From a virus, in IMG/VR virus record IMGVR_UViG_3300009157_000016, positions 32,001 through 96,000 of that record: a DNA stretch of 64,000 nt. One strand, 5' to 3'. The position numbers were made by a program, and so were the translations under genes. Of the stretch, positions 10,324 through 61,935 are shown piece by piece. Each line of letters begins with the position of its first letter. Position 1 is the first letter of the stretch. Below the pieces are notes generated by a model that ran no database searches, was not told where the DNA came from, and worked only from the letters and a program-made list of their open reading frames with translations.

Positions 10324-10832
10324 GCCTAAAGCTGCCAAAGCCCGACCCGCGAGCGACGGTGGAAGCAGCCGATCAGGAGTTTAACATGGTTGAATTAGAT
10401 CTGAAGTCTGAGAAGATCAGTCTGACGGTCTTGATTGGTTTTCTCACCATGTTCGCATCCTTGATATTGGCTTATGCCGATCTAAGGAATGGTCTTGGTG
10501 ACGCAGATGCTTTTATTGAGAACCAACGAAGTGAAAACACGCGAATGTTTCGCAAGATAGATGATCACATTGAGCTATTGACTGCCACTATCGCACGGGT
10601 CGACAGGTTGGAGTTTCAGATCGAGCAGATGCAGCAAAATGCCACGAATACGACTGAGCGCATTGGTGTCGTTACCGAGAGCTTCTCCAATCAGATGAGC
10701 AGCGCGAACACTTTGATCAGTCGCATCAATATCGAGCTGGCTATTGTCAATCAGATGCTTAGGCAGCTAGGATATAGGAACGACGATGATCGAGGACTGA
10801 GTGGTCTGGCTCCGGATGAAGTTGGTCGCTAA
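10320..10832 (+). CDS. Single-TM coiled-coil protein
   Basis: TM ISLTVLIGFLTMFASLILAY followed by coiled coil; last gene of the + operon. Confidence 0.55.
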   Translation: MSLKLPKPDPRATVEAADQEFNMVELDLKSEKISLTVLIGFLTMFASLILAYADLRNGLGDADAFIENQRSENTRMFRKIDDHIELLTATIARVDRLEFQIEQMQQNATNTTERIGVVTESFSNQMSSANTLISRINIELAIVNQMLRQLGYRNDDDRGLSGLAPDEVGR

Positions 10833-11560
10833 GGAATGACTGTGATGGGGCGGTCCACGCCCTTGCCAGTCAGAAGTTCTTCATCACGCTCTTGCAGCAC
10901 TTTCTGCAAGCGCCGCGTTCCTTCCACAATCAGATCATTCTCAACGAACTCAGAGGCGGTAGGCGCTAGGCCCATCTGCATGAGTTCCTTGGCGCGCTCA
11001 GACGGCTCGTAGATGGGACCCTGTGGCTTCTTGCGCTGATGCTGATACTTCCCGTCGTAGGGCTTGTTGGTAGGATGGTCCAGCCAGTCAAAGATCATCT
11101 GGCAGACCGGATCACCCTTCTTGTAGGTCACGTTGGCGGTTCCAAGGTTGACCAGCTCCAACGTGCCGTTGCCCCAAAAGCCGGGATCAAAGAACGTGTT
11201 GAAGGCGGACACGAAGACCCGCGCGTAGGTGCTTTTGTCGCACACGCCGCCTGACACTTGGTCGGGCATGTAGAAGTCTTCCAGTGTGTAGGCCAGCGCC
11301 GCCATAGGCGGGTTGTTGCTCAGCTTGTCCTTGAGCAGCTCCACGTTTGCGAAGCCGTGCTCCAGGATGTGGTCGGAGATGATATGGGCGGGATTGATCC
11401 CAAGGATCAGATCGTGGTCAATGTGGCAGTCGTAGGAAGCCGAGCTGAGCCCGCCTGACTTGCCGTTGATCACGACCTTCTCTCGCCGGAACGGAGAGAT
11501 CATCGGCTGGTTTGTGTCTGCGCACAACGCTAGAATGCTTTGATGGGACAGCCGAGCCAT
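10829..11560 (-). CDS. dcd: dCTP deaminase / trimeric dUTPase-family protein
   Basis: SGGLSSASYD, VCDKSTYAR, FDPGFWGNGTLELVN, GDPVCQMIF, YDGKYQHQ motifs. Confidence 0.9.
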   Translation of the reverse strand: MARLSHQSILALCADTNQPMISPFRREKVVINGKSGGLSSASYDCHIDHDLILGINPAHIISDHILEHGFANVELLKDKLSNNPPMAALAYTLEDFYMPDQVSGGVCDKSTYARVFVSAFNTFFDPGFWGNGTLELVNLGTANVTYKKGDPVCQMIFDWLDHPTNKPYDGKYQHQRKKPQGPIYEPSERAKELMQMGLAPTASEFVENDLIVEGTRRLQKVLQERDEELLTGKGVDRPITVIP

Positions 11561-11877
11561 TACCTTCTCCTCTTGCTCCGGTAGACCTTCTCCGGGCTTG
11601 CTAGGACCCGCGTGCAAAGCTTGTGATGCTTCTCGCACCAACTCTTACCCGGCAAAACGGGGTCTCCGCAATAGCGTGCTTTGGGGTCCCGCAGTTCACC
11701 GTAGATGTACTTGCATTCGTCAAAGTTGGGTATGTTGCCTAGACGGAACTTGGCAAGCTTCTTCGCTTTGCGTTCTTTGTAAGCTTCCAAGTTGAAATCA
11801 GGCGGCAGGCGTTCCCGGTGCTTAGGCGGCCATAGCCGCGCAATGTCCTCCTCAGTGAGGCGAACCCGGTGTTTCAC
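11560..11877 (-). CDS. GcrA-like protein, C-terminal Cys-rich domain only
   Basis: CKYIYGE..YCGDPVLPGKSWCEKH matches the GcrA C-terminal C(K/R)WPxGxP..FCG..YCxxH pattern; no GcrA HTH at the N-terminus. Confidence 0.7.
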   Translation of the reverse strand: MKHRVRLTEEDIARLWPPKHRERLPPDFNLEAYKERKAKKLAKFRLGNIPNFDECKYIYGELRDPKARYCGDPVLPGKSWCEKHHKLCTRVLASPEKVYRSKRRR

Positions 11878-16345: not shown

Positions 16346-16679
16346 CTACCCGCTCCCCTTTATCGTTGATAGGCCACTTCTCACCGCTGATAAGACGGAT
16401 AGTGACCATTTCCTGATGACGGTTCATCATGTCGACTTCGTATTCCGCCTTGCCGTTGGCGACCTCAATGGTGAACCGCATTCCCCTTAGCTTCTCGGGG
16501 TCGCTGATGTCCAAGCCGAACTCACGAAGCATTGCGAACGTCGTCGTGGTGGAGTGCATCCACGGAGTGTCTATTGTGGTGTAGCGCTGGCCGTAGATGG
16601 GCTCCACATCTTTGCCGAATGCGGTATCAGGAACCTCGCCGGTGTGCAGCGAGAATTGCATCCTGCGTAGCTCAACCAT
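16329..16679 (-). CDS. Hypothetical protein
   Basis: GAGGAGG RBS; coupled to RecA. Confidence 0.55.
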   Translation of the reverse strand: MVELRRMQFSLHTGEVPDTAFGKDVEPIYGQRYTTIDTPWMHSTTTTFAMLREFGLDISDPEKLRGMRFTIEVANGKAEYEVDMMNRHQEMVTIRLISGEKWPINDKGERVDEEGR

Positions 16680-17724
16680 ACTTCCTCCTCTTGGGTATGA
16701 ACTCGTCCTCGATCTCATTCCAGAGACGACGGACGACCTTGTTGACGCGACGTGTCTCGCGGTCAAACTCCTTGTCGCTCATGTCGTTCAGCGCGTCGCG
16801 GTACTGAGTGAACTCCTTCTTCTCCGCCGGTATGTCAGCCGCCTTGAGACGCTTGATGGACTTGAGCCAGTCCAGCGAAGCCCCAAGGTCATCAATCCCG
16901 TAGCCAAAGATGAAGTCCATGTCGCACGACCTGAACGGGAAGCCGACCTTGTTCTTCTTGCATAGGGCTTTGATGCCGATCCCGTAGACGCGCTCAACGC
17001 CGCGAATGGTGCGCTTAAGCTGCTCCTTGTGGGACAGCCAGAGGATGTGCGTGGCGTAGAAGTCAAGCGCTTTGCCGCCAGCGCGGCGGTGCTTCTCCCC
17101 AAAGCTGACGTTGATGTTGTCCCGCACCTGTGAGACGATAACAAGGCAGACGCGGGCCTTGCCGATCTTCTTGGTCAGCTTGCGGAACAATTCAGACGCC
17201 ATCTTGGCCTTTGCCATGCCGTAGGTGGCGTCACCAATCTCACGCTCCAGTTCCTTCTCGTCGCTGAGGCCGTCATAGCTGTCCAGCACGTACATGCCGG
17301 GCACGTCGTCTTTGATGCAGTCGTCGCAGAAGCGTTCCAAGTCCCGTGCAAACGCTTCAATGGTGGTGATGGGGGCGTCCGGATCGCCGAAGTCTATGTC
17401 GTCAACCGGCGCGCCCATAGCCTGCGCATAGTCCATGTCGTAGGCTTCTTCTGTCTCCCGGTAGGCTGCCTTTCCCTTCGGGTAGTCCATGCAGAAGTTT
17501 GTCAGCCCCTCAGTGGCAAGCGCCGTCTTGGCCGTGCTCTTGTCGCCCACGATGTTGATCATACGTCCTAGGACGTAGCCGCCGCTGAGAACGTTATCAA
17601 GCAGCCCGCAGCCGCTTGACGTGAATTCCAGCTTCTCCTTTTCGGAGGTGAAATAGAGGTTGTCCTCTTTTCTCAGCTTGTCATAAGCCGTTTCATCCTC
17701 AAGCTTTACGCGCCGCTTTGCCAT
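16672..17724 (-). CDS. RecA/UvsX-like recombinase
   Basis: SSGCGLLDNVLSGG, GDKSTAKT Walker A, VLDS, SQVRDNI, GGKALDFYA, KNKVGFPFR; start MAKRRVKL after GGAGG. Confidence 0.95.
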   Translation of the reverse strand: MAKRRVKLEDETAYDKLRKEDNLYFTSEKEKLEFTSSGCGLLDNVLSGGYVLGRMINIVGDKSTAKTALATEGLTNFCMDYPKGKAAYRETEEAYDMDYAQAMGAPVDDIDFGDPDAPITTIEAFARDLERFCDDCIKDDVPGMYVLDSYDGLSDEKELEREIGDATYGMAKAKMASELFRKLTKKIGKARVCLVIVSQVRDNINVSFGEKHRRAGGKALDFYATHILWLSHKEQLKRTIRGVERVYGIGIKALCKKNKVGFPFRSCDMDFIFGYGIDDLGASLDWLKSIKRLKAADIPAEKKEFTQYRDALNDMSDKEFDRETRRVNKVVRRLWNEIEDEFIPKRRKYG

Positions 17725-17931: not shown

Positions 17932-19503
17932 TTAGTCCCGGTCGCGCCTCCGGCGGTCCCGGTCGTCGTCCGGGTCGTCATAGCGGGTGCGCTTCTTGTC
18001 ACCGCGATCGTCGTCACGGTCGCGCTTGCGGTCACGGTCGTCGTCATCATCCCGACCGCCGCGCTTCTCGCCGACGTCACGTTTGCGGTCGTCGTCCTTG
18101 TCCCGGTCCTTGCTGCGCTCACGCATCTCAGCAAGACGGTCCTTCACGTTGCGGCGCTCACCCTTGTCGTCGTCATCGCGCTTCCGGTCCCGGTCCCGGT
18201 CATCGTCATCACGGTCGCGACTGCGGCTGCCACGGTCAACGTCATCCCGGTCACGGCTGCGGCGGTCGTCCTTGTCGTCGTCACGGTCACGCCCGCGCCG
18301 GTCATCACGGTCGTCATCCCGGTCACGGCTGGCACGACGATCATCCCGGTCATCATCACGGTCACGCCGGCCACGACGATCGTCGTCGTCTTCGCTCCTC
18401 TTCCGTGACGACCCACGGTCATCATCACGATCGTCGTCCCGGCCACGGCCGCGCACCGAACCACGATCATCATCATCCCGGTCACGCCGGCCACGGCCTG
18501 AGCCGCGTTCGTCATCATCCCGGTCACGGCTGCGCCCGCCGCGCCGGTCGTCATCCCGGTCACGGTCACGGCTACGGCCACCACGACGATCGTCTTTGTC
18601 GTCGTCGTCCGTTTCAACGCGGACGTGGCCGCCGAAGGCCGCTTCAATGTGGTCGTAGTCGTGGTATTGCAGGACATCAGGGATGGGATTTTCCTTGATG
18701 TAGTCCAGCACGTCCTGCATGTCACGCTTGTTGTCCAAGATGGGACCGCTGGGGAGGATCTTCATCTTGGACGCCGGGTACTTGGTATTGCGGCCGGTGC
18801 CTTCACGGTAGAAGCGGATGTCGTTCCCGTCGTAAGGGTCATCAATGTAGATGAGCGCCTTGGTGTCCTCGTCAACCGTCAGGTTGGCGATGTCCTTGTC
18901 GAACGTCCACGCCATTGCCCAAAACTGAGCGCCTTCGTCAGGAGCGTTCTTGTCAAGGACCCACACGCCCTTCCGCTTCTTGGGCGTCAGGGCTTTGGCC
19001 AGCTTCTCGTCGCCGTCCTTTTCAGCATCACGGCGGGCCTCATCCAGCGGGTCCCTCTTGCCCAGCATCTTGCTGAGGCTGAGGTACGTCTGCGAGTCGA
19101 CGCCAATGCCGTAGTTGCAGTAGATGTCGTAGCAGTAGTACTTCGCATCGTCCCACGTGGGCGGCAGGATGCGGATCGTGTTCTTGCCTTCCTTTGGCTT
19201 GAACACCTTGATCCCATCCTTTACGATGGAGTCGAAGTTCCCTCCGCTTTGGTTGGCGGCTTCCCGCACGGCTTCACGCGACGTGCGCTTGTAGACAAAG
19301 CTACCACCACGACTGGAGCCGCGATCATCATCACGGTCACGATCACGCGAACGACCACGGTCACGATCCCGGTCATCGTCGTCCCTCCCACGGCTTGAGC
19401 GCCTGTCGTCATCATCCCGGCCACGGCGACGATCGTCGTCCCGGTCACGGTCGCGATCCCGGTCATCATCCCGGTCACGGCGTCTATCGTCATCACGTGC
19501 CAT
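17932..19503 (-). CDS. gp32-like ssDNA-binding protein with long Arg/Asp-rich N- and C-terminal tails
   Basis: Core FKPKEGKNTIRILPP..DPYDGNDIRFYREGTGRNTKY is typical of gp32-like SSBs; lies between RecA and UvsY-like genes. Confidence 0.75.
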   Translation of the reverse strand: MARDDDRRRDRDDDRDRDRDRDDDRRRGRDDDDRRSSRGRDDDDRDRDRGRSRDRDRDDDRGSSRGGSFVYKRTSREAVREAANQSGGNFDSIVKDGIKVFKPKEGKNTIRILPPTWDDAKYYCYDIYCNYGIGVDSQTYLSLSKMLGKRDPLDEARRDAEKDGDEKLAKALTPKKRKGVWVLDKNAPDEGAQFWAMAWTFDKDIANLTVDEDTKALIYIDDPYDGNDIRFYREGTGRNTKYPASKMKILPSGPILDNKRDMQDVLDYIKENPIPDVLQYHDYDHIEAAFGGHVRVETDDDDKDDRRGGRSRDRDRDDDRRGGRSRDRDDDERGSGRGRRDRDDDDRGSVRGRGRDDDRDDDRGSSRKRSEDDDDRRGRRDRDDDRDDRRASRDRDDDRDDRRGRDRDDDKDDRRSRDRDDVDRGSRSRDRDDDDRDRDRKRDDDDKGERRNVKDRLAEMRERSKDRDKDDDRKRDVGEKRGGRDDDDDRDRKRDRDDDRGDKKRTRYDDPDDDRDRRRRDRD

Positions 19504-20214: not shown

Positions 20215-21192
20215 CTAGGCCCGGTGGAGTTCCAGAACCAAGCCAATGGAAACGTAGAGGGGAGCGTACTTGGCGGAATTGTCATAGGGCGTTGAGAAGC
20301 ATTCGATGATCCTCAGCAGGCTCGCAGCGCGGCGGTGATCAGTCGTCTTGGCCGCCACCTTCGCCATGTAGTGGCACGTAACGATGCGAATGCTTTCAGC
20401 GTCCTGATTGGCTTCCTCCATGTCCTTGCAGATGCGCATGGCGTCCTTCCATGTGCCCTTGGGCTTCATGAGGAACTGGCAGAAGTCATTGATTTCCTTC
20501 GTCTCACCGGCCAGCCTTAGCGCCTCACGCGCGTCGGTCACCGTTTCGCAGTACTCAACCTTCTCAAGGTAGGTCAAAGCCTGCCGTGGTGAGCCGCCGC
20601 TGTTCTCAGCAATCAGCTCTAGTATCTCATCCTCCACCTTGAGGTCCGCCTTGTCCATGACCTCGGCAAGGATGAGCAGAATTTCATCCTCACTGAGCGG
20701 CTTGAGATGGTAGTCAATGCACCGCGTCTTGATGGTGGCAGGAACCTTGCCGGGCAGCGTGGTGCAGAAGAACCAGTACACGTGCTTGGGCGGTTCCTCC
20801 GTGGCCTTGAGAATGCTGTCCCATGCGTTGCTGGACAGCTTGTGGCACTCATCCACGATGATTCCTTTGACCGGACTGTCGCCAATTGCCCGGTAGTTGG
20901 CCTTCTGGACAATGCTGCGCATGGCGTCCACACCGGTATGCGTGGCAGCGTCCACGTCGAGGATGTTCGCCAGCGTGATAGTGGCATCGTCGCTCTTGGC
21001 CCCAAGCAGGGCAAACTCGTTCGCCACAATGCGGGCAAGCGTCGTCTTGCCAAGGCCGGAGCCGCCCGTGAACAGGAAGGTGTGGGCACGCCCCTCCTTC
21101 ACGACCTTGCGCAAGGACTTCACGACGGCGTCGTGTCCAATGACGTCCTTGAATACGTTCGGCCGATAGGCGGTGTGTAGTGACGTGCTCAT
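20215..21192 (-). CDS. Clamp loader, DNA pol III gamma/tau-like AAA+
   Basis: YRPNVFKDVIGH, GGSGLGKTTLARI, DAATHTGVD, IVDECHKL, LKATEEPP, TIKTRC. Confidence 0.95.
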   Translation of the reverse strand: MSTSLHTAYRPNVFKDVIGHDAVVKSLRKVVKEGRAHTFLFTGGSGLGKTTLARIVANEFALLGAKSDDATITLANILDVDAATHTGVDAMRSIVQKANYRAIGDSPVKGIIVDECHKLSSNAWDSILKATEEPPKHVYWFFCTTLPGKVPATIKTRCIDYHLKPLSEDEILLILAEVMDKADLKVEDEILELIAENSGGSPRQALTYLEKVEYCETVTDAREALRLAGETKEINDFCQFLMKPKGTWKDAMRICKDMEEANQDAESIRIVTCHYMAKVAAKTTDHRRAASLLRIIECFSTPYDNSAKYAPLYVSIGLVLELHRA

Positions 21193-21512
21193 CTTCGTTT
21201 ATCCTTTCGCTTCCCCTGTTGGCTCATGTGAAATATACCGTTCGCACAGTCAGGGCGCTCCCCATTGCACGGCCTCCAGTAGATGTGTCCGCACAACGTA
21301 CACTCAGTTGGCTTGTCACCGGGGAACGCTGGATACATCGTTCGGTGGTCACCGGCTTTGTACTCGGTCATGACCTCTATGGGTCCGTCGTCCAGCCTCA
21401 CCCGCTGACGGTGCGGCGGCGGGGCGGGCTCAGGCAGTATCAGGTCATCTTCGTCAAGCCTGACCCGTTTGCGGGGCACGACGGGCTCATCTAAACGCAC
21501 TCGCTTTTTCAT
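21189..21512 (-). CDS. Small protein with three RVRLD repeats and a C-terminal Cys cluster
   Basis: KKRVRLDE/RKRVRLDE/RQRVRLDD then CTLCGH..PC..DC; GGAGG RBS; ATGA-coupled to the clamp loader. Confidence 0.7.
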   Translation of the reverse strand: MKKRVRLDEPVVPRKRVRLDEDDLILPEPAPPPHRQRVRLDDGPIEVMTEYKAGDHRTMYPAFPGDKPTECTLCGHIYWRPCNGERPDCANGIFHMSQQGKRKDKRR

Positions 21513-21548
21513 CTGTTACCTCCATACGCCCCCGCAGGGCGCGGAGGC

Positions 21549-24266
21549 TTAGATACCCTGAGAATCGAATGACTTGTAGTTCTCGCTCCAGTACTTGCCC
21601 ACGGGCTCAAGCTTGTTCCACTTCTTGCCAATGGACACTTCCACGCTCATAGGCACGTTGATGAAATCATACGGGAGCAGAAGCAGTTCGCGTGCCAAGT
21701 AGCTGATCTCATCTGCCAGTATGCTGTCCTTGTCAGGCATCATGAACGTCAGGTCGTCATGGATTTGCATGATGGGATGACGGTAGCGGATCTTATGCTT
21801 GAGAGAGCTGCGGCTGATCCTCACCATGCCGTCGTTCACAATGTCAGCCGCCAAGGACTGGATGGGGCTGTTGTACAGTTCGTGTCGGCTCATGGGATAG
21901 TAGCGGCGGCGGCCGGTGAACGTTTCCACGTAACCCACGTCGTAGTAGGTCCGCATGGTCTCGTCCTGCCACTCCTTGAGGCCGGAGAACGTTTCCCAAA
22001 ACTCCTCAAAGATGTCCTGCGCCACGTTGTCAGGCATGGCCTCGCCAAGGAAGGGTAGGAAGTAGCTGGCAACCGACGGCTCAGCCGCACCAAAGATAAC
22101 AGGGAACACCATCTTGTTCTTGACCAGTGAGCGCGCACCCTTCAATGCGTCCTCGTCATTCTTCCCCTGCTTCTCCTTAAAGTAGTCGAACAGCCACGGC
22201 CAGCGCTTGCCAATTTTGAGCGCCCATTCCTTGTGAACGTCGTATTCCTTCCACGTAGCACCGACCATGTTCTTGTCATTGCAGAACATGCAGGCGGTAC
22301 ACCACTCCAACTGCCCAAAGTCCACGCTAACGAAGACGTGGCCTTCCAGCGCTTCAACTTGCTCCCTGATCCAAGCGTCCTTGTGCTTGGGCCAGTTCTG
22401 CATGTTGGGGTCGTCCGAACTGAGTCGGGCGGTGGTGGTGAAGGTCGTGTTGAAGGAAGTGTGGAGCTTGCCGTCGGGAAAGATGAGCGTGCCGTCAGGC
22501 AGGATCATCTGGTCGACGTACGTGCTCTTCATCTTCACTTTGTTGCGCAGCTTGATAATCAGCGGCGCAAGCGGATGGTCTATCTTCTCAAGGACGGCTT
22601 TGTCAACCTTCTCAGTGACTTTATCTGAGTCCTTTTTGTCCTTGACGAAGACCTCAGGCCGCTTTAGGTAGTCACGGAATATGGTAAGGACCTGCGGCTG
22701 CGACTCAGGATTGAATTCCCCTTTATGCTCACTGACATACTTCTTGACCACTTTGAGGCCAAGGATGTCATTTACGATACCCTTGACTTCGTCTTCCAGC
22801 TTGCCTTGCAGGCGCTTGGCGGTCTTCTGGTTGATGGGGACGCCGTAGTGCTGCATGAGAGCCACCGCGCCCTGACGCGGCATGGCCATCTCATAGACAT
22901 GCTCCTGCCTGATGTCCCTGATAAGCTTGTCCTGATGGAACCAGAGTTGCAGCGTGGCGCGCGTGTCAGCGCCATTGTAGATGAGGACCTGATCGTAGGG
23001 GCTTTTGCGCAGGTCCTTCTTGTCCAGCTTGAACTGGCTCTTGATGTCTATGCCGAAGTGCTGGCGTGTGAGGAAGCCTAGCTTTTGGTATTGCGAAGCG
23101 TGATCGTCCTGACCCTTCTCGTTTGGCCCTTTGCGGCCGTCAAGGATGTAGGCTTGGACCATTGTGTCTTCCCACGAGTTGTGGTGAACAATGTCTTCGC
23201 CAAAGTAGAAGATGTACCACTCCATCTCAAATGGAGAGTTGTGCGCAATCTTGGGGATGTCACGGCGGCGTATCAACGCCTCAAGCCGGTCAAGGATCTT
23301 CTGCCGCTGCGCTTTGGACCAGTTGGCCTTGGGATGGTCGACTCCGAACGAAAACGTTCTTAGTTTTAGGTGCCTGTCATAGTAGGAAAAGGCGGCCGTC
23401 AGAATGATAGCGCCGGTGCGGTAGGGTCTGAGAGGCCACGTCTCAAGGTCGGTGGCGTAGCAGGCAACTCCTCTCTCAATGTCGTCGAACTCCCGCATCA
23501 GGGAGTCAAAGTCATCCTCGGGGCGCTCACCGCTGTAGGTGTTGACGTCCTTCTTGACAGTCTGCTGAGTCCATACTTCCGGCCACGGCGGATCGTCGTC
23601 CATGAACCGCCATATCTGCTCAAAGTCCAGCTTCCACGCGCCACCTACTCGGCCGTTCAGCGGGCGTCTGTCATCCTTGGCCGACCGCAGGACGTAGGCA
23701 GGGTGATTGGTGGGGAAGAACCAGCACTCATGCTTTCCAATGGTGACCGCAAAGAAGCGGCCCCGCATACCTTGCATGTCTTTCGTGCCAAGCATCCACT
23801 GCAAGGCTGGGATGCCAAGGCCCACGATCAGCTTGGGGGCAGCTTCCTCAATGGCGGCGGTGACGTAGCCGCGACAGCACTCCTGCTCAATCCACTCCGG
23901 CGGCCGTATCTTACCCTCAGCGTTTTTGGGGAAGTGCCTGACTGTGTTCCCGTAACCGCAGTTGTCATAGTATTCGTTGGGGATCATGGACTTGAGAAGC
24001 TTGCCTGACTTCCCAATGAACGGTACGCCCTCCTGTTCCTCCTGCGGACCCGGTGCCTCACCTAGGAAGAAAATGTCGCATCTGCGTGGTACGTCTTCAC
24101 GGACCTCATTGCCGGCACGTGAGAGGGGGCAAGCGCGACAGCCTAGGCGTTGCAGCGTTTCCGAGCTTTGCTTCGTTTGCTGGCCTACCGAAGACCGGCG
24201 GGGGCCGGTTTTGTCGGCGCCCTTTTTCGCGTTCGCCTTATCTGCTTTCTGGTAGAAGAAGCCCAT
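21549..24266 (-). CDS. Family A DNA polymerase with N-terminal family-4 uracil-DNA glycosylase domain and 3'-5' exonuclease
   Basis: UDG: CRACPL, GEAPG, CC, HPAY; exonuclease: DLET, HNSPFE, YNGAD; Pol: TTARLSSDDPNMQN, DFGQLE, RSLVK..F..IFG, NSPIQ, QIHDD. Confidence 0.95.
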   Translation of the reverse strand: MGFFYQKADKANAKKGADKTGPRRSSVGQQTKQSSETLQRLGCRACPLSRAGNEVREDVPRRCDIFFLGEAPGPQEEQEGVPFIGKSGKLLKSMIPNEYYDNCGYGNTVRHFPKNAEGKIRPPEWIEQECCRGYVTAAIEEAAPKLIVGLGIPALQWMLGTKDMQGMRGRFFAVTIGKHECWFFPTNHPAYVLRSAKDDRRPLNGRVGGAWKLDFEQIWRFMDDDPPWPEVWTQQTVKKDVNTYSGERPEDDFDSLMREFDDIERGVACYATDLETWPLRPYRTGAIILTAAFSYYDRHLKLRTFSFGVDHPKANWSKAQRQKILDRLEALIRRRDIPKIAHNSPFEMEWYIFYFGEDIVHHNSWEDTMVQAYILDGRKGPNEKGQDDHASQYQKLGFLTRQHFGIDIKSQFKLDKKDLRKSPYDQVLIYNGADTRATLQLWFHQDKLIRDIRQEHVYEMAMPRQGAVALMQHYGVPINQKTAKRLQGKLEDEVKGIVNDILGLKVVKKYVSEHKGEFNPESQPQVLTIFRDYLKRPEVFVKDKKDSDKVTEKVDKAVLEKIDHPLAPLIIKLRNKVKMKSTYVDQMILPDGTLIFPDGKLHTSFNTTFTTTARLSSDDPNMQNWPKHKDAWIREQVEALEGHVFVSVDFGQLEWCTACMFCNDKNMVGATWKEYDVHKEWALKIGKRWPWLFDYFKEKQGKNDEDALKGARSLVKNKMVFPVIFGAAEPSVASYFLPFLGEAMPDNVAQDIFEEFWETFSGLKEWQDETMRTYYDVGYVETFTGRRRYYPMSRHELYNSPIQSLAADIVNDGMVRISRSSLKHKIRYRHPIMQIHDDLTFMMPDKDSILADEISYLARELLLLPYDFINVPMSVEVSIGKKWNKLEPVGKYWSENYKSFDSQGI

Positions 24267-24421
24267 CACTTTTCCGCTTTGAGTTGGTCGAGTCGCTTGC
24301 GGCATGTGGCAAGCAAGTCACGGTTCGCGAAGTCACCGTGACGCTTGAGTTCTGCCTCCTGCACCGCCAGCATGACGTCGACGATTTCGATCAGGGCGTT
24401 AACCTTCTGCACATCCGGCAT
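24266..24421 (-). CDS. Small hypothetical protein
   Basis: MPDVQKV..., GGAG RBS, coupled to PolA. Confidence 0.45.
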   Translation of the reverse strand: MPDVQKVNALIEIVDVMLAVQEAELKRHGDFANRDLLATCRKRLDQLKAEK

Positions 24422-24422
24422 G

Positions 24423-25478
24423 TCAGTCTCCGAAGTTGGACAAGATTTGGAAGAGGTCCGCCCCCTTCCGGTAGACCGTGAAGCCTTCCAGCACGGCCAT
24501 CTCTGAGCATACGTCAATGCTGCGCGCCATCAAAGCCGCGTTGACCTTGATCTCGACGTCTGGATGATCCCCTTGAAGGTTGACCAGATCGCGCACCTCG
24601 CCCATGTCGGTGTTCGTGTATAGGCGCATCCGGCCTTCCTTGATGCTGATCTCAGTGGGCTGCGATTTGGGCTCAGCCACGACACGCGCCCGGCTCAGAG
24701 CGTGCTCAAGTCCTTTGGGGACCTTCATCCACGGGATCTCATCCCGCGTGGTCTTTTCGACCCACATGGCGTGGTCCACCGGGTCTTCTGGTTTGATGAC
24801 GCGGCCGTAGACCTTGTAGTCCTTCTCAAGCTCGGCCAACACCCATTCGTCAGAAGCGTGCAGCCGGCCGTTCATGGACTTGTCGCTCTTGCAAATGCGC
24901 AGGACCGACTCGCAGAAGGAGTTGGGCATGACGAAGCTGTGCGGGTCGTTGTAGTTGGCTCCGTCGATCAGGTAGTGCGTGAGGCTGTCTGAGTCGCAGG
25001 AGTAGAAGCTGATCCCGTCACCGGTATCCAACGTGATGCCCATGAGCGCCTGTTGGCTGCTGTCCTTGCTGGTCGTGGTGAGGCAAATTTCCATCGCCTC
25101 AATCAGGCTGTCATCCAGGTCCAGCACCACGTCCCACGACTCGTCAGACGGTTCTTTGAACAGGAACTCTGACTCTGGCAAGTAGGGCAGGCGCATCTTG
25201 GACCGGCCGGCAATGAACACGACTTCGTGTTGCTGGTCGTCGAACTCAATCTCCACTTCCTCGGTGCGGCAGTTGCGCAGCAAGCCGAGCATGGTGTCGC
25301 CGTGGCAGGCGAAGGGCGCTACGCCGGACGTGCATTTGGCCACGATGCCTAGGTGGTCGTCCGTCGCGTACAGGGTGTCCCCTGTGAACACGAAGTTCTG
25401 GTAGACGGGAACCAAGTCCTGATCGGCCAAGGCGGGCTTGATCAGTTCCAACATCGTGACCAGTGCTTTGCGTCTCAT
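24423..25478 (-). CDS. Sliding clamp (DNA pol III beta-like)
   Basis: About 350 aa; PVYQNF..LYATD, QALMGI..YSCDS, ALSRARVV patterns parallel DnaN; next to Pol and clamp loader. Confidence 0.8.
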   Translation of the reverse strand: MRRKALVTMLELIKPALADQDLVPVYQNFVFTGDTLYATDDHLGIVAKCTSGVAPFACHGDTMLGLLRNCRTEEVEIEFDDQQHEVVFIAGRSKMRLPYLPESEFLFKEPSDESWDVVLDLDDSLIEAMEICLTTTSKDSSQQALMGITLDTGDGISFYSCDSDSLTHYLIDGANYNDPHSFVMPNSFCESVLRICKSDKSMNGRLHASDEWVLAELEKDYKVYGRVIKPEDPVDHAMWVEKTTRDEIPWMKVPKGLEHALSRARVVAEPKSQPTEISIKEGRMRLYTNTDMGEVRDLVNLQGDHPDVEIKVNAALMARSIDVCSEMAVLEGFTVYRKGADLFQILSNFGD

Positions 25479-25918
25479 AGCCTCACCCTTCTTGCTAGTT
25501 TCCAACGGCGCTTGGCCGATTGCTGCATCTTTGCGATAGATTCGGATGTGTGCCGCGTACCATACCTTATGTGACCTATACCTTTCTGCGTGACGCCGGA
25601 GTGACCCTTCTGAGATTTATGTTTGGCGTGACAAGAAGGATAGAGTTGATTCTGACTGTTGGTTCCATCAAGTAAGTGCGCGGCGTTGCAGCACGGATGA
25701 AATTCGCAGTCATGGAGAACCATTCTTGGCCATGCTGGCACGTAACCGTTCTCTAAGAAGAACGCCACGCGATGGGCAGTGTACTGTATGCTGTGACGAA
25801 CTGAGAATACTCCATGCCCACTGGTTTGCGTTCCGCCTAACCAAGGCCAGCATTCGTCGGGGCCGCGTCGGTCAACTTTGGACCAGAAGCGCGCTATGTC
25901 TTTAGCGCTGAGGATCAT
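25475..25918 (-). CDS. HNH homing endonuclease with NUMOD3-like tail
   Basis: RFWSKVD..CWPW, AHRVA, LHDCE..CCNAAHL..GTNSQN; HTSESIAKM. Confidence 0.9.
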   Translation of the reverse strand: MILSAKDIARFWSKVDRRGPDECWPWLGGTQTSGHGVFSVRHSIQYTAHRVAFFLENGYVPAWPRMVLHDCEFHPCCNAAHLLDGTNSQNQLYPSCHAKHKSQKGHSGVTQKGIGHIRYGTRHTSESIAKMQQSAKRRWKLARRVRL

Positions 25919-44725: not shown

Positions 44726-45703
44726 TCATTCAACGCATTCGTTGGGCAGATACTTCCGGTACTGGCACCAGCCTTTGAGGTTCCCATGCTTCTCAGGGTG
44801 CTGCCAGTAGCCGCCTTCGAAGCCTATGCCATCGGCGCGCAGGTCTTCTGGAACCCACACGTCAGGAGTGGCAACCGACTCGGACGGGCTGGCGTGGACC
44901 GGCATTGAGCCCACAAGAAGCTTGAAGCGTGCGAACTCCGCTTCATAGGCAGCGTTGCCGTCGAAGGGGGCAATGCTGACGCGGGCGATACGAGCCGTGC
45001 TGATCCTTCTCAAGTCATTGAGGCAGGCTTTGTTATCGTCACCGTGCATCAGCTTCACTTCGTCTCTATCTTCTTCGCTGATGTAGGGCATGTGCCATTC
45101 GCCGGGCTGGAGCAGCTTCGGCGTGCTCATGTTAAGCTCGGTCTGGATGCAGAACGCAAGGTCCTGCATTTCCTGTTGGGCGGCGGAGTGGTCCCTCAAC
45201 GCTAGGAAGTTCTTCCAGTTGGTTGTCGACAGGACCAGGTCGATGTAACCAAAGAACTCCAGCGGTCTATTCGCCCACTGCTTGTGGACGTCCATCTCAT
45301 TGAACCAAGCCACCTCGTCCGCCACATGCGCGCACAGCTTGAGCCAGCGCGTCGTGATGGCGTCGAGCGTCTCAGGATCAAACTCTTCACCGGGCGTCAT
45401 GCCCTTGGCGTTGTGGCGAAAGGCTGGCACGTAAGGGTTCTCACGTGCTTCCTTTAGCAGCCGGTTGACCGGCACTGCCCGTGACGAACGTCCATTGCGG
45501 GACATGTCACGGTCGATGAGGATGGAGATGTCAGTCATGACGTCCAAGACCTCACCTTCATAGCCGGAGTGAATCCTGTGTGTTTTGCAGTCAGCGTGAA
45601 CCATGCGCGGGAAGCGCACTTGCAGTGACGCAAAGCGGGGAGCGTATTGTCCAATGCTGTCAAGGATCATTGTGGCGCTAGCGCCGTGTCTCACAGTAGC
45701 CAT
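44726..45703 (-). CDS. thyX: Flavin-dependent thymidylate synthase (ThyX/Thy1-like)
   Basis: FPRMVHA..THR..SRNGRSSRAVP, HKQWANRPLE, NFLALRDH..AQQEM, STARIARVS, HASPSE. Confidence 0.8.
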   Translation of the reverse strand: MATVRHGASATMILDSIGQYAPRFASLQVRFPRMVHADCKTHRIHSGYEGEVLDVMTDISILIDRDMSRNGRSSRAVPVNRLLKEARENPYVPAFRHNAKGMTPGEEFDPETLDAITTRWLKLCAHVADEVAWFNEMDVHKQWANRPLEFFGYIDLVLSTTNWKNFLALRDHSAAQQEMQDLAFCIQTELNMSTPKLLQPGEWHMPYISEEDRDEVKLMHGDDNKACLNDLRRISTARIARVSIAPFDGNAAYEAEFARFKLLVGSMPVHASPSESVATPDVWVPEDLRADGIGFEGGYWQHPEKHGNLKGWCQYRKYLPNECVE

Positions 45704-47092: not shown

Positions 47093-47554
47093 CTACGCCG
47101 AGAGCATCTCGATCAGGCCGAGCTTCTTGAGGTCCACGTTGAGTGTTGTCGCGATCTTGTTGAGCACCGCGACCTCCGTGGCTTCCAGCTCGCCGTCGGC
47201 GTAGGCCACGTCAAGGCCGACCAGATAGACGTCTTCACCAATGGTCTCACCCTTGCCCTTGACGTCGGCAATCTCACGCATCAAGCCGATGCGGCCCGAA
47301 TGGGAGTCCGCCTTCTTGAGCATGGTGTCCATCGTCCGCTCAATGTCGTCTGACTTGTAAATTGTGGACAGACTGGCGTGGCTGCCGACGATCTTCATCG
47401 CCTTCGCACGCTCCTCCGGTTCCAGCGTCCCGTCGGCGTAGGCCACCAAGGCGACGGCCGCGCAGCACGCTTCCAGAAAGTCTTTGTTCTGGCCGTACTC
47501 CGCCTTCACTTCCTTGGTGGCGGCACCGACGATCTTCCGCAAAGATCCAAACAT
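47093..47554 (-). CDS. TerB family protein
   Basis: NKDFLEACCAAVALVAYADG..EE..DVAYADGELEATEVAVLNKIA. Confidence 0.9.
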   Translation of the reverse strand: MFGSLRKIVGAATKEVKAEYGQNKDFLEACCAAVALVAYADGTLEPEERAKAMKIVGSHASLSTIYKSDDIERTMDTMLKKADSHSGRIGLMREIADVKGKGETIGEDVYLVGLDVAYADGELEATEVAVLNKIATTLNVDLKKLGLIEMLSA

Positions 47555-57742: not shown

Positions 57743-58429
57743 ATGCAGGGTAAAAATAAACGACGGGTTCGGCTAGACGACGAGCCGCGACCGAAGCGCG
57801 TGCGGGACATGGAGCCCGCCAACCGCGCCCGTGACCGGGCTTATCGAGATGCACCGCGCGACACGGAAGGTCGCATGATTCCCGGCTTTAGATACAAGCA
57901 ACTCGTCGATGCATACGAGTCCGCCGGGCTGGAGCCGCATGTTCAGCGGGTAGACGACGTCAGCTTGACGAAGCGCCCCATGTTCATCTCAAACCCTGAG
58001 AAGGGTAAGAGGCTGATCAAGCTGCTCCGCAAGGGGTTGCCTTACACCACGTGCTGTCGGTTGATCGGGATCAGTCGCTCCACATTCATTGAGTGGATGG
58101 TGAAGGGCCGTGAAGGGCATCCCCATTACGTTGACTTCTACGAGAAGATCTGCAAGGCGGAAGGCCAAGCAGAACTCAGCAGGCTCAAGGAGCTGCGGCA
58201 GGATGGTAAGGGCGACTGGAAGTCGTCTGCTTGGCAGCTCGAGCGCCGTTGGCCTGAGCATTGGGGACGCCGCGACGCAGTGCGTGCGGAAGTTGTCGCC
58301 AACGTAGAAATCAGCGTAAAGGGGAAAGAAAAGCTGGCGCAGCAGGTCGCCACCGACGAAGTGTCGCGCGAGCTTGCGCGCCGCATGATTGACGGAACGG
58401 AATACGGCTACGAGGACCTCAGCAAATGA
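57743..58429 (+). CDS. Terminase small subunit
   Basis: HTH LRKGLPYTTCC..GISRSTFIEW, WKSSAWQLERRWPEHWG; directly upstream of TerL. Confidence 0.75.
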   Translation: MQGKNKRRVRLDDEPRPKRVRDMEPANRARDRAYRDAPRDTEGRMIPGFRYKQLVDAYESAGLEPHVQRVDDVSLTKRPMFISNPEKGKRLIKLLRKGLPYTTCCRLIGISRSTFIEWMVKGREGHPHYVDFYEKICKAEGQAELSRLKELRQDGKGDWKSSAWQLERRWPEHWGRRDAVRAEVVANVEISVKGKEKLAQQVATDEVSRELARRMIDGTEYGYEDLSK

Positions 58430-60042
58430 CCGGTCTGATTGAGAGCACTGGCCGGTTCCGCGTACGATTGGACGCTGAGGACCTGGAAGAGATTGAGGCC
58501 CGCCCCAAGCGCCGCGTGCGCTTGGGGACAGACGTAGCAGAGCTGTCGCAGGCGGCGTATGCCAAGCCGCTTGTCGACACTGCCGGGAAGCCGCTGATAG
58601 TTCCCAACAGGGACTTGATGGGCAGGATCACACCGGAGGAACTGGCGTACGCGCTGCCCGGCGGTCTTGCCAAGCTGGCCTACCCCAAGTGGATGTATGC
58701 CCCCTACATCCGCTACGTTGAGAACCGCATCCTGCCCATCATTCAGGGCAACAAGTCCATCTACCTGATGTTCTCAGCGCCGCCTCGGCACGGCAAGACA
58801 CAATTCATTTCCAAGGTGCTGCCGGCTTGGTATCTTGGGCGCAACCCTGACAAGCGTGTCCTGCTCGTCACCTACAACACTGAGTTCTCCAAGCAGCAAG
58901 GTCGCGCTGCCCGGAACATCTTTGAGCAGTTCGGTCCCACGGTCTTCAACTTGAAGGTCGCGATGGACAGTTCGTCCGCTTCCCATTGGGACATTGAAGG
59001 ACACCAAGGCGGTATGGAAGCCGTAGGTGCCGAAGGTTCCATCATGGGTAAGGGCGCGGACCTTCTGATCATTGACGATCCGCTCAAGGGCTTTGAGGCT
59101 GCGATGAGCGAGACCATCCTACAGCGTGTGTGGGAATGGTTCCTGACCGACGTTTACTCCCGTCTGGAGCCCGGCGCTTCGGTCATCATTGTCATGACGC
59201 GCTGGACGCTTCTTGACTTGATTGGTCGCATTGAAGCGCGGCGCATTGAGACGCAGGAGGAGGTTGACGCCGGCGAGGAAGAGATTGTCGCGTTCGACGA
59301 GTTTGAGCGCATCAACTTCCCTGCCTTGGCGACCGACGACAACGACGTGCTTGGCCGCCTCACCGGTCAGGCGTTGTTCCCGCAGCGGTACCCCGCAGAG
59401 CGCTTGCTCAAGATCAGGCGCAACATGGACACGTACTGGTGGGAGGCCCTGTATCAGGGGAACCCCGTGCCGCTCAGCGGCACGATGATCGATATCAAGT
59501 GGCTGACCGGCACCGGCCGCCAGTACGTGGAGGAGATGGTCCGCAATCAGTTCGAGATGATCGTCATCTCAACTGACACGGCCAACAAGGACACCGAGCT
59601 GGCCGACTTCAGTGTGTTCGGCGTGTGGGGTATCCGTGAGGACCGTTACTACCTTTTGGACCTCATCCGTGATAAGATGGAGTTCCCTGAGCTACTAGGC
59701 ACCGCGAAGGCGTTGCTGGAGCAATGGGATCCGACCTTCTTCCTCATTGAGGACAAGGGCTCAGGAACCAACCTGATCCAAATGCTCCGCAACGAGGGTG
59801 TGGACTGCGTGCGGCCCATAGACCCCGGTAGCGAGAGCAAGATCATCAGGATGAGCTCTGAGACCCCCGCGATGAGAGTTGGCAAGGTGAAGACTCCGAA
59901 GGACGCCTCATGGCTCGAGCCCTACCTGCTTGAGGCAAGAAGCTTCCCCCGTGGCAAAAAGGACCAAATGGACATGACCTCGCAGTTCCTACGCTTCATG
60001 CGTGAGAACTCAAGCGGGATCAAAATGTGGACATTCCAATGA
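58426..60042 (+). CDS. Terminase large subunit
   Basis: PPRHGKT Walker A, GKGADLLIIDDP Walker B, MTRW, ALYQGNP, DTA..DFS, IEDKGSG, FPRG..DQMD. Confidence 0.95.
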   Translation: MTGLIESTGRFRVRLDAEDLEEIEARPKRRVRLGTDVAELSQAAYAKPLVDTAGKPLIVPNRDLMGRITPEELAYALPGGLAKLAYPKWMYAPYIRYVENRILPIIQGNKSIYLMFSAPPRHGKTQFISKVLPAWYLGRNPDKRVLLVTYNTEFSKQQGRAARNIFEQFGPTVFNLKVAMDSSSASHWDIEGHQGGMEAVGAEGSIMGKGADLLIIDDPLKGFEAAMSETILQRVWEWFLTDVYSRLEPGASVIIVMTRWTLLDLIGRIEARRIETQEEVDAGEEEIVAFDEFERINFPALATDDNDVLGRLTGQALFPQRYPAERLLKIRRNMDTYWWEALYQGNPVPLSGTMIDIKWLTGTGRQYVEEMVRNQFEMIVISTDTANKDTELADFSVFGVWGIREDRYYLLDLIRDKMEFPELLGTAKALLEQWDPTFFLIEDKGSGTNLIQMLRNEGVDCVRPIDPGSESKIIRMSSETPAMRVGKVKTPKDASWLEPYLLEARSFPRGKKDQMDMTSQFLRFMRENSSGIKMWTFQ

Positions 60043-60311
60043 CGGATCAACAGCAACCACCGCAGACGATTGTACAGGCGGGAGGCAGGGTAGCTGAGGG
60101 GTTGGTCTCCTCGTTTACCGGAGCCCCAACGCTGCTTCTCATCGTGATCCTGAATATCACGATGATCATCATGGGTGGTTTCTTTTTGCTCAAGCAGGAC
60201 GAGTTGCAAGCCAAGAACGTAGCCGAAGTTATTTCACTGGTCCGTGCGTGCATTTTGGAGACTGTTCCAACCACGCATCTCAACAGGGAGTTAGACAACA
60301 ATGGCCCGTAG
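60039..60311 (+). CDS. Small membrane protein
   Basis: Single TM; lies between TerL and portal. Confidence 0.55.
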   Translation: MTDQQQPPQTIVQAGGRVAEGLVSSFTGAPTLLLIVILNITMIIMGGFFLLKQDELQAKNVAEVISLVRACILETVPTTHLNRELDNNGP

Positions 60312-61935
60312 AGGAGCAACCGCCAAGGCGGCAAGGTCCGCAGCGCAGGCGCAGGGCGGACAACTGACGGCGTTGTCCAGCGTGGCCGCTGAGAAGGCGA
60401 CGGTACCTGCCGTCGCCCCGCAGTTCGTCGGCCTTGGTTCGCAGTTCACTTCCCCACGGCGTGGCGTCAGGGAGCTTCTCAAGCTCTACAAGGACGCCCC
60501 GTGGCTGCGCGCCATCGTCGGAAAGATTGCTCGCCACGTTGCGGACACCGACTGGTTCATGGTGGCCGCCAAGGATGAGAACGGCAAGTACCGCATTGAC
60601 AGCGAAGTTCGCAAAGCGGTTCGCACCGGTACCATCAACAAGCTGATTAGCGTGGGCAGAGCAGACAGGATTGAGAACCATCCGCTGCTCACCATGCTGC
60701 GTGACGGCACCGGGAACCCGCGTCTCAATGGGCACGGCTGTCTTGCGGTGACGATGCAGCACCTTGACCTTGCCGGCGAATCCTTTTGGCTTTGGGAGCG
60801 CAACCAGCTCGGCGTTCCTTACGCCTTCTGGCCGCTGCCGCCGAATTGGGTCACGGACATGCCGTCAAGGGAGAAGCCCTTCTACCATGTGGCAGCGCCC
60901 GGCGGGTTGCAGATTGACATCCCGGTCACGGAGATCTGTCCGTTCATCGACCCGGACCCGGAGAACCCGTACACCCGTGGTGTCGGCACCGCGCAGTCCT
61001 TGGACGACGAAATCCAGATCGACGAGTTTGCGGCCAAGCATCAGAAGTCTTTCTTTCTGAACCGCGCCCGCCCGGACATCATCATCAGCGGTCAGTTCCT
61101 TTCGCAGAAGGACTCTGAGCGGCTTGAGAAGCAGTGGATGAGCGACCACCAAGGGTTTTGGAAGGCGTTCAAGCCGCTGTTCTTCTCGCAGAAGATCGAC
61201 GTCAAGGAACTCACGCAGACCTTCGAGCAGATGCAGATGGTGCAAATGCGCAAGGCTGAGCGGGACACTTTCATCTCAGTGTTCGGCGCACCGCCTGAGA
61301 AGTTCGGCATCATTGGTGAGTCCAAGCGTTCGACCATTCAGGCGGCGGACTACTTCTGGACCAAGGACATCATTCAGCCGCGCGTGGAGATGCTGCGGCG
61401 TGTCCTGCAACAGGTCGCCGTGCCTATGTTCGACACGCGCTTGGTGCTGGCGTATGAGACGCCGGTCATCCAAGACGACGAACTCAAGCTGGAGACCATG
61501 AAGGCCGCTCCTTGGGCCTACACGATCAACCAGTGGCAGGAAGCCGCCGGCAACACGTCAATGGGAGAGCGCGGTGAATTCTTTGCTATTCCGCTGAACA
61601 TGGTGCTCATCCCCGCCAAGGACCTCAAGGACTTTGTTCCGCACACGACGGAAGAGAACGATGAGGCCGCCCAAGCCATTGCGGATCAGGCAGCGGAGGA
61701 CGAGGCTGAGACTCCTCAGGAGGAGATGATGCGCATCCAGCGCATGGCGCTGCGGGCGCGCGGCAAGGCGCAGGGCGACGAACTGGACGTTACGTCCCTT
61801 GCGCAGGCTATTGCCTCGGCCGTCACGTCTGCCATGTCTCAACCGCTGGCCGACATCAAACGACGGATCACGTTCAGGGATGCGTCGGTCGATGCGTTCA
61901 GGGATGGATCACCGGGGAATGGAAATGGACCGTGA
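60301..61935 (+). CDS. Portal protein (HK97-type)
   Basis: HPLL..L..NP..HLDLAGESFW, WPLPP, DPENPYTRG, FFLNRARP, FGAPPEKFG. Confidence 0.85.
   Translation: MARRGATAKAARSAAQAQGGQLTALSSVAAEKATVPAVAPQFVGLGSQFTSPRRGVRELLKLYKDAPWLRAIVGKIARHVADTDWFMVAAKDENGKYRIDSEVRKAVRTGTINKLISVGRADRIENHPLLTMLRDGTGNPRLNGHGCLAVTMQHLDLAGESFWLWERNQLGVPYAFWPLPPNWVTDMPSREKPFYHVAAPGGLQIDIPVTEICPFIDPDPENPYTRGVGTAQSLDDEIQIDEFAAKHQKSFFLNRARPDIIISGQFLSQKDSERLEKQWMSDHQGFWKAFKPLFFSQKIDVKELTQTFEQMQMVQMRKAERDTFISVFGAPPEKFGIIGESKRSTIQAADYFWTKDIIQPRVEMLRRVLQQVAVPMFDTRLVLAYETPVIQDDELKLETMKAAPWAYTINQWQEAAGNTSMGERGEFFAIPLNMVLIPAKDLKDFVPHTTEENDEAAQAIADQAAEDEAETPQEEMMRIQRMALRARGKAQGDELDVTSLAQAIASAVTSAMSQPLADIKRRITFRDASVDAFRDGSPGNGNGP

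Follow-up and report, generated by a model that had tools for sequence, protein, structure and literature searches.

A putative zinc-knuckle protein with three copies of a terminal RVRL tag in the replication operon of an uncultivated phage

The stretch of DNA analysed here, called the window, comprises 64,000 nucleotides, bases 32001-96000 of the 108,377-bp IMG/VR virus record IMGVR_UViG_3300009157_000016, which is rated 100% complete, and our subject is a 107-residue protein that is encoded in it between the genes for PolA and the clamp loader. This protein has three copies of a short peptide with the core RVRL, and the same peptide recurs as a tag at the ends of other proteins of the phage. 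In the reading that we favour, to which we give about an even chance, it would be a small auxiliary protein, encoded in the replication operon of the phage and docked by its tags to a hub. Its working body would be a four-cysteine zinc knuckle of about 40 residues with a basic helix, most likely binding nucleic acid, and its disordered N-terminal arm would present three copies of the docking tag of this lineage. It would thus be one more client of the tag beside RecA, the single-stranded-DNA-binding protein (SSB), a resolvase, an HNH endonuclease, a DNA methyltransferase, TerS, and TerL. The tandem tags would raise its avidity for an oligomeric reader, and the knuckle would thereby be brought to, or held at, the place where the tagged DNA-processing proteins gather. 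We infer that this place is a protein hub that reads the tag.

The 107-residue protein and its family

This is a genuine gene. It has a Shine-Dalgarno sequence of its own, and in an ATGA its stop codon runs into the start of the clamp-loader gene (Table 2), which makes it a member of the replication operon with translational coupling to the gene that follows. The order of the protein is M-KKRVRLDE-PVVP-RKRVRLDE-DDLILPEPAPPPH-RQRVRLDD-...-CTLCGHIYWRPCNGERPDC-...-QQGKRKDKRR, with the tandem tags spaced 12 and 21 residues and Pro-rich linkers between them. The original prediction, which was made from the letters of this DNA, had read the open reading frame (ORF) exactly in this way, three tags and then a Cys knuckle in 107 residues, and it had also placed it correctly between PolA and the clamp loader.

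When a word-based homology search was run with the 107-residue protein no match was obtained beyond the protein itself. The status of an orphan gene was nevertheless dropped, as an exhaustive HMMER search gave five relatives and a genome search gave a syntenic orthologue. The latter is in IMGVR_UViG_3300017540_000001 (hereafter G001), a related complete phage of 102,569 bp with terminal repeats that has 50 ORFs syntenic with the window genome (hereafter G000). Two of the five relatives, P0126 and P0127, have two N-terminal tags, the knuckle, and the basic tail, their starts being MAKRVRLNEP...TRVRLSAP... and MNRRVRLDDEPQPKRRVRLEAP...; P0129 and P0131 have the knuckle without any tag, and P0130, which is 45 residues long, has little beyond the knuckle and the basic tail. 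P0126, P0127, and P0129 were not found in IMG/VR. The G001 orthologue, whose knuckle is CSFCDKVYIFPCNGERYDCAN, lies between PolA and the clamp loader and has a single tag that forms its very last residues, KKRKRVRL-stop. In the alignment of these seven sequences only M1, C71, C74, Y78, P81, C82, G84, and C89 are invariant. The reading frame is fixed by the four cysteines that the homologues keep. A K/R-rich tail ends five of the six homologues, and the G001 orthologue ends in the tag itself.

The number of tags in the family is thus 0, 1 (at the extreme C-terminus), 2, or, in the window protein, 3, and since number and position vary while the knuckle does not, it is the knuckle that forms the conserved body, the tag being a portable module. 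This is what the alignment shows for the family as a whole, in which the tag is at the N-terminus, at the C-terminus, or absent. It corrects the description of the protein in the original prediction as made mostly of tags, because the part that is conserved is the knuckle with its basic tail. In an AlphaFold2 (AF2) model built on the family alignment the first 60 residues lack secondary structure, 69-78 form a hairpin, and 90-105 a helix, whereas a model from the single sequence was poor. The four conserved cysteines come in two pairs around the short predicted beta-hairpin, as in a C4 zinc knuckle. No match to the protein was found in Pfam or PHROGs, the NCBIfam matches were far below threshold, the PDB sequence and fold rows were insignificant C2H2 fingers, and Foldseek and the ESM Atlas gave nothing significant for the knuckle fold or the family. 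Judged by these comparisons, this is an undescribed family of putative C4 zinc-knuckle mini-proteins to which the tag is an add-on that fits either end.

The RVRL tag and its clients

The occurrence of the peptide in the G000 proteome, which has 33,426 residues, was compared with chance. RVRL is found in it 17 times, three of these in the 107-residue protein alone, when about 1.3 occurrences are expected, and RV[RK]L is found 19 times compared to an expected 2.2 and a maximum of 10 in 2000 shuffles. The wider pattern R[VI][RK]L was counted in G000, in G001, and in three phages that have only the replication module in common with G000 (Table 1). The codons of the three copies in the 107-residue gene differ (Arg CGA/CGG and CGT/AGG; Leu TTA/CTT/CTG), and over the tag copies of G000 the synonymous codons for Arg and Leu vary freely. 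A DNA-level repeat or a mobile element as the origin of the tag is ruled out by these differing codons, which mean that it is the peptide, and no DNA element, that is maintained; selection of the RVRL tag at the peptide level is, on this codon evidence, shown. In line with the earlier view of RVRL as a tag, the peptide is a real, selected, and portable signal, and the 107-residue protein, as its densest natural display, would be a reasonable bait.

Table 1. Occurrence of the pattern R[VI][RK]L in the window phage and in related phages
Genome	Relation	Observed	Expected	Terminal
G000	window phage	22	3.4	17
G001	related complete phage	16	3.1	11
G007	replication module only in common	1	2.9	0
G006	replication module only in common	4	3.4	0
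G004	replication module only in common	1	1.4	0

The consensus of 93 tag copies is P-x-[KR]-[KR]-R-[VI]-[RK]-L. In the core R-[VI]-[RK]-L the second position is V in 76 of the 93 copies and the third is R in 86, and the residue ahead of R-V-R-L is variable, often Q, N, P, T, or V. After the Leu come D/E (34 of 93), S, G, or the stop, and a Pro is often found three residues past the Leu. Among the tags that lie 30 residues or fewer from a C-terminus, 8 of 15 end exactly at Leu-stop. That V and L hardly vary, that a carboxylate is preferred after the Leu, and that the tags sit at free ends speaks for a specific reader, probably an oligomer, and not for an effect of charge alone.

Several other explanations have to be weighed, some of them about the tag and some about the protein, and not all of them are mutually exclusive. 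One is that the tag has no protein reader at all and is a nucleic-acid tether or 'molecular sled' that holds its clients on DNA and lets them slide, in which case the 107-residue protein would be a small DNA binder whose tags give it three further hooks on DNA. All clients of recognised function do act on DNA, the tag mostly has three to four basic residues, four interleaved ones at any spacing enable a peptide to bind DNA and slide (PMC4797294), and no reader gene came out of the presence/absence profiling described below. However, the activity of sleds is robust to sequence change (PMC4797294), yet V and L of the tag are near-invariant; an acidic residue or a free carboxylate right after the Leu is favoured, which is odd for DNA binding; and tag-free relatives use homologous RecA and resolvase without it. 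We regard a sled as unlikely.

Terminal tags in G000 are found on a DNA methyltransferase, a PDDEXK/RusA-like resolvase, the RecA/UvsX recombinase, the gp32-type SSB, a neighbouring 166-residue protein, an HNH endonuclease, the phrog_35491 protein, TerS, and TerL, which has two copies, as well as on several small proteins with no function assigned. PolA, the clamp, the clamp loader, the primase, DnaB, the SNF2 helicase, SbcCD, the tail proteins, and the portal of G000 have none. In both G000 and G001 the tag is kept on the resolvase, RecA, the phrog_35491 protein, TerS, TerL, and the knuckle protein.

It is the TerL client by which the tag was recognised as clade-wide. Out of 41 TerL orthologues with 48-77% identity, 35 have one to three tags inside the first 70 residues, whereas the remaining 19,083 residues have none, and among more distant TerLs only 1 of 79 has a tag. 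Although the N-terminal arm is otherwise unalignable, R30 and L33 in it reach at least 90% conservation. These orthologues are the strongest evidence that we have for a clade-wide tag, and their comparison shows that it is conserved on orthologues across one phage clade. Some related proteins differ in ways that are worth recording. The portal of G001 (G001:C1:14914-16515, locus L049) has an N-terminal tag, MAKRHRTRLTEV, and the window portal (60301-61935) is without one. Two IMG/VR contigs of the same TerL clade, L020 and L022 (TerL 55-58% identical), lack RVRL, and Lys-rich runs, e.g. MALKKRKKLLKKRK, which are possibly a diverged tag, stand instead at the start of their TerS, TerL, and portal. 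Four tag-bearing TerL orthologues, P0022, P0026, P0029, and P0037, are 787-842 residues long, about 300 more than usual; one of the long TerLs has the homing-endonuclease domain PF05204, and the extra length is probably due to inteins.

Tandem tags are common on TerL, two copies being present in 17 of the 41 orthologues and three in 2, with a spacing of 7-20 residues, and the triple array of the 107-residue protein is thus the upper end of a normal format and not a special decoy. This bears on the proposal that the protein is a decoy or regulator that titrates the tag reader by avidity and so times or limits the recruitment of other clients, in the manner of competitors such as p21, which competes for PCNA through its PIP box, and lambda cIII, which does so for FtsH. 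The protein does have the top tag density of the genome, three in 42 residues, and it is small and co-expressed with the clamp loader. But its family conserves the knuckle rather than the tags, with homologues that have 0-2 tags and a G001 orthologue that has a single C-terminal one, and TerL, an enzyme, commonly has two or three tags in tandem. A decoy is for these reasons distinctly doubtful. The multivalent display that the original prediction described is indeed there, but multivalency alone is no sign of a decoy or cross-linker when so many TerLs share it, and the role as cross-linker, adaptor, or decoy, though possible, has gained no positive evidence.

Genome context and candidates for the tag reader

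The phages that share only the replication module with G000 are 42% identical to it in RecA, 47-49% in the resolvase, and 41-44% in the clamp loader, and they have neither this type of TerL nor terminal tags; the tag thus goes with the TerL/packaging side of the genome. The slot between PolA and the clamp loader also varies among relatives. It is empty in L002 and L069, it holds an HNH gene in L070 and L072, the HNH protein of L072 ending in ...RPRVRL-stop, and it holds unrelated small ORFs in L003, L006, L011, L015, L076, and L077. With such variable content the position of the gene is weak evidence for a reader in the replisome. The earlier suggestion that the receptor is a replisome component was drawn from this position, and it is not supported when the slot is variable, when PolA, the clamp, the clamp loader, the primase, and DnaB are untagged, and when the tag tracks the packaging and not the replication module.

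The absence of tags from these core replisome proteins can be turned around into an argument for a piggy-back adaptor, whose knuckle would bind the untagged clamp loader, PolA, or clamp and lend it three tags, so that the core replisome would reach the same place as the tagged clients. The translational coupling of the knuckle gene to the clamp-loader gene and the order PolA, knuckle, clamp loader, which is retained in G001, would fit such a role. Against it, the slot is without a knuckle gene in such tag-bearing relatives as L069 and L072, and there are knuckle homologues without tags; we consider an adaptor very unlikely.

A reader would be expected among the genes that tag-bearing phages share, and 31 genes are common to G000 and G001 and absent from G004, G006, and G007. 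They include the portal, connector proteins, a MoxR-type AAA+ ATPase, its DUF2201 partner, a J-domain protein, and unknowns. Among the function-unassigned proteins common to G000 and G001 there was no striking acidic candidate. The clamps of the tag-bearing phages are acidic (net -17 to -28), but one tag-free clamp is acidic too, and clamp charge as a pointer to the reader is therefore suggestive but not discriminating. Of the J-domain protein (YELLGV...HPD motif; L012:12852-13511, minus strand, genome 12852-13511) the J-domain alone is conserved in G001. The MoxR-type AAA+ ATPase (phrog_1297) and the DUF2201 protein, which consists of a metallopeptidase-like N-domain and a VWA domain, are encoded as a pair at L014:7962-9290 and L014:10084-11151, that is at 71962-75151 in window numbering, past the window end, and the pair is also present in G001.

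This pair is an unproven candidate for a reader or remodeller of the tags, and it leads to the explanation that the tag is a handle at free ends which is read by an AAA+ machine, either host ClpX or the phage MoxR-type ATPase with its VWA/metallopeptidase partner. Such a machine would remodel or degrade tagged DNA-bound proteins, and the triple-tag protein would be its preferred substrate or a competitor. Tags do lie at the extreme N- or C-terminus, many of them being the last four residues, the clients include potentially harmful nucleases and recombinases, and while phrog_1297 and DUF2201 are common to G000 and G001, DUF2201 is absent from four tag-free relatives. However, homologues of DUF2201 are found in many cultured phages, the tag status of which was not examined, and a host-wide reader such as ClpX leaves the confinement of the tag to one phage clade unexplained. 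We hold an AAA+ handle to be rather improbable.

A further explanation is that the tag, as an import signal or an address, directs its clients into a compartment or condensate that the phage makes around its replicating DNA. The clients recall the set of proteins that nucleus-forming phages have to bring to their DNA, the tag resembles the functional nuclear localisation signal (NLS) of IRF5, and the SSB of the window phage has long tails of mixed Arg/Asp charge. But these tails are absent from the G001 SSB, the core replisome is untagged while the portal of G001, a virion protein, is tagged, and the phage is a 108-kb siphovirus-type phage with bacterial-type RecA and DnaB, a beta-like clamp, a gamma-like clamp loader, and tail genes of the phiJL001 Gp84 / BR0599 / Rcc01698 type. 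Among about 65 proteins scanned none looked like a shell, a tubulin, an importin-like protein, or a multisubunit RNA polymerase, no chimallin profile being included in the search. A compartment signal of this kind seems extremely improbable. The tail gene types hint at a proteobacterial, perhaps alphaproteobacterial, host.

The most far-reaching possibility is that RVRL is the address code of a phage-built hub, whether a protein ring, a condensate, or a compartment, which gathers recombination, nuclease, methylation, transcription, and packaging proteins on the replicated DNA, with the triple-tagged knuckle protein as its DNA-anchored scaffold or gatekeeper. This we think quite improbable, but if true it would mean that a virus of bacteria encodes its own network of short linear motifs, akin to the PCNA/PIP and NLS/importin systems and with a hitherto undescribed reader.

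Several points also weigh against the reading that we favour, that of a tagged, nucleic-acid-binding accessory protein docked to a hub. The presence/absence profiling did not identify the reader, as 31 candidates are too many. Binding of zinc and of nucleic acid by the knuckle is only what we infer; the AF2 model on the family alignment had no fold match, and its mean pLDDT (predicted local distance difference test) of 63 is moderate confidence. The knuckle gene is dispensable in some relatives and is thus not a core part of the replisome. Moreover, three tags are the top of the range, so an additional role as a competitor or scaffold is possible.

As for cultured phages, the best matches are 30-37% identical in TerL and 33% in PolA, and no cultured phage falls inside the tag-bearing TerL clade, the best being 37% identical; the TerLs of Ruegeria phage RpAliso and Caulobacter phage CcrRogue have no tag. 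A scan of GTDB genomes gave only distant TerL matches (25-45% identical), none of them over the tag-bearing N-terminal arm. In the open-access literature that was searched no description of a phage RVRL tag turned up.

The coordinates of the features are given in Table 2. The true start of PolA is probably M14 (MGFFYQK, nt 24266), 13 codons inside the longest ORF (24266-24305, minus strand), since MGFF starts most of the PolA orthologues among L002, L004, L006, L011, L069, and G001, tagged or not. This conserved N-terminus resembles a docking motif, for which the clamp is a possible partner. The gp32-type SSB (PF08804; phrog_34306; 17932-19503, minus strand) has about 65 N-terminal and 225 C-terminal residues of near-pure Arg/Asp mixed-charge repeats, which its G001 orthologue (415 residues) lacks. 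A dCTP-deaminase-like protein (PF22769) and a thymidylate-synthase-like protein (phrog_85), at 10829-11641 and 44726-45703 on the minus strand, hint at modified bases in the phage DNA, and a TerB-domain protein (PF05099, 1.6e-13) is encoded mid-genome at 47093-47554, also on the minus strand.

Table 2. Positions of the 107-residue ORF, its parts, and other features, in window numbering
Feature	Position	Strand	Basis
107-residue ORF: disordered N-terminal arm with three tags, C4 zinc knuckle, basic C-terminal helix (predicted)	21189-21512	-	homologues, AF2 model
Tag 1, residues 2-9, KKRVRLDE	21486-21509	-	
Tag 2, residues 14-21, RKRVRLDE	21450-21473	-	
Tag 3, residues 35-42, RQRVRLDD	21387-21410	-	
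Putative zinc knuckle C71-x2-C74-x7-C82-x6-C89, residues 71-89, CTLCGHIYWRPCNGERPDC	21246-21302	-	seven-sequence alignment
Basic C-terminal segment, residues 90-107, ...QQGKRKDKRR, predicted helix	21192-21245	-	
Shine-Dalgarno GGAGGT, 5 nt before the ATG of the 107-residue ORF	21518-21523	-	
ATGA overlap of the 107-residue ORF stop and the clamp-loader gene start	21189-21192	-	
Clamp loader (AAA+), no tag	20215-21192	-	PF13177 7.5e-18, phrog_5846 2.5e-73
UDG / 3'-5' exonuclease / PolA fusion, no tag	21549-24305	-	PF00476 1.8e-53
Sliding clamp, no tag, net charge -25	24423-25505	-	phrog_947
RecA/UvsX-like recombinase, N-terminal tag MAKRRVKLED	16672-17724	-	
TerL, two N-terminal tags (RFRVRLD, KRRVRLG)	58426-60042	+	

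Comparison with known docking and targeting peptides

Short docking peptides shared by many proteins, clamp-binding motifs, SSB tails, and NLSs among them, organise replication and repair in cells, and to our knowledge few such docking codes are known in phages. Here a four-residue core is found at the free ends of more than a dozen unrelated DNA-handling and packaging proteins. An entire clade of uncultivated phages keeps it, and relatives with homologous replication genes lack it. Once its reader is identified, it would become clear how recombination, DNA processing, and packaging are co-ordinated in these phages, and a compact portable tag would be gained. The 107-residue protein with its single-tag and tagless homologues is a ready-made comparison series.

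One close parallel is with the clamp docking motifs, namely QL[SD]LF of the bacterial beta-clamp, the PIP box, and the C-terminal tails of T4 gp43, gp33, and gp55 that bind gp45. Like RVRL these are short terminal motifs on many unrelated DNA-transaction proteins and may be duplicated, and small competitors such as p21 exist for them; here too the gene sits near the clamp, polymerase, and clamp-loader genes. The terminal position on many DNA-transaction clients is indeed found for the tag. However, [KR][KR]R[VI]RL does not fit the consensus QL[SD]LF or Qxx[LIM]xx[FY][FY], as it has alternating Arg, no Gln, and no aromatic pair. In addition, the polymerase of the window is untagged and has instead the N-terminal MGFF that is also present in tag-free relatives, and TerS, TerL, RecA, and SSB are not the usual clients of a clamp.

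In sequence the tag is close to the NLSs of c-Myc (KRVKLD) and IRF5 (PRRVRLK), with which the pattern P-[KR]-[KR]-R-V-[RK]-L-[DE] is near-identical, and like them it is portable, at either terminus, and often duplicated. A classical NLS needs Lys at the site preceding the equivalent of R-V-R-L, and many tag copies do fit the pattern K-[KR]-x-[KR], but the preceding residue in the tag is variable and often Q, N, P, T, or V. An importin-alpha NLS also presupposes a eukaryotic host with a machinery for nuclear import, whereas the gene content of the window phage is of bacterial type and speaks for a host among the bacteria, and nothing like an importin came up among the proteins scanned.

ClpX signals are also found at protein termini, such as the basic C-terminal RRKKAI-type signal of MuA and the SspB tail LRVVK. 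They resemble the tag as basic-plus-hydrophobic peptides at the free terminus of phage DNA-transaction proteins, which in the case of ClpX are read by an AAA+ machine, but their consensus differs, and RVRL is equally common at the N-terminus, occurs in tandem, and is confined to one phage clade. The T4 capsid-targeting sequence is likewise one short peptide on unrelated proteins of one phage lineage. It is N-terminal only, is cleaved, and marks packaged internal proteins, whereas RVRL is also C-terminal, often as the Leu-stop endings described above, and marks DNA enzymes and the terminase, so that it does not belong to this class.

Finally, pVIc of adenovirus, the 'molecular sled', and NLS-like sliding peptides tether cargo to DNA (PMC4797294, PMC4740752), and pVIc is, like the tag, a very short basic peptide at a protein end. 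The tag has the basic content that sliding requires. Sleds tolerate nearly any basic arrangement, whereas RVRL has a near-invariant V and L followed by an acidic group, and such strict conservation of V and L is not what the sled study (PMC4797294) leads one to expect.

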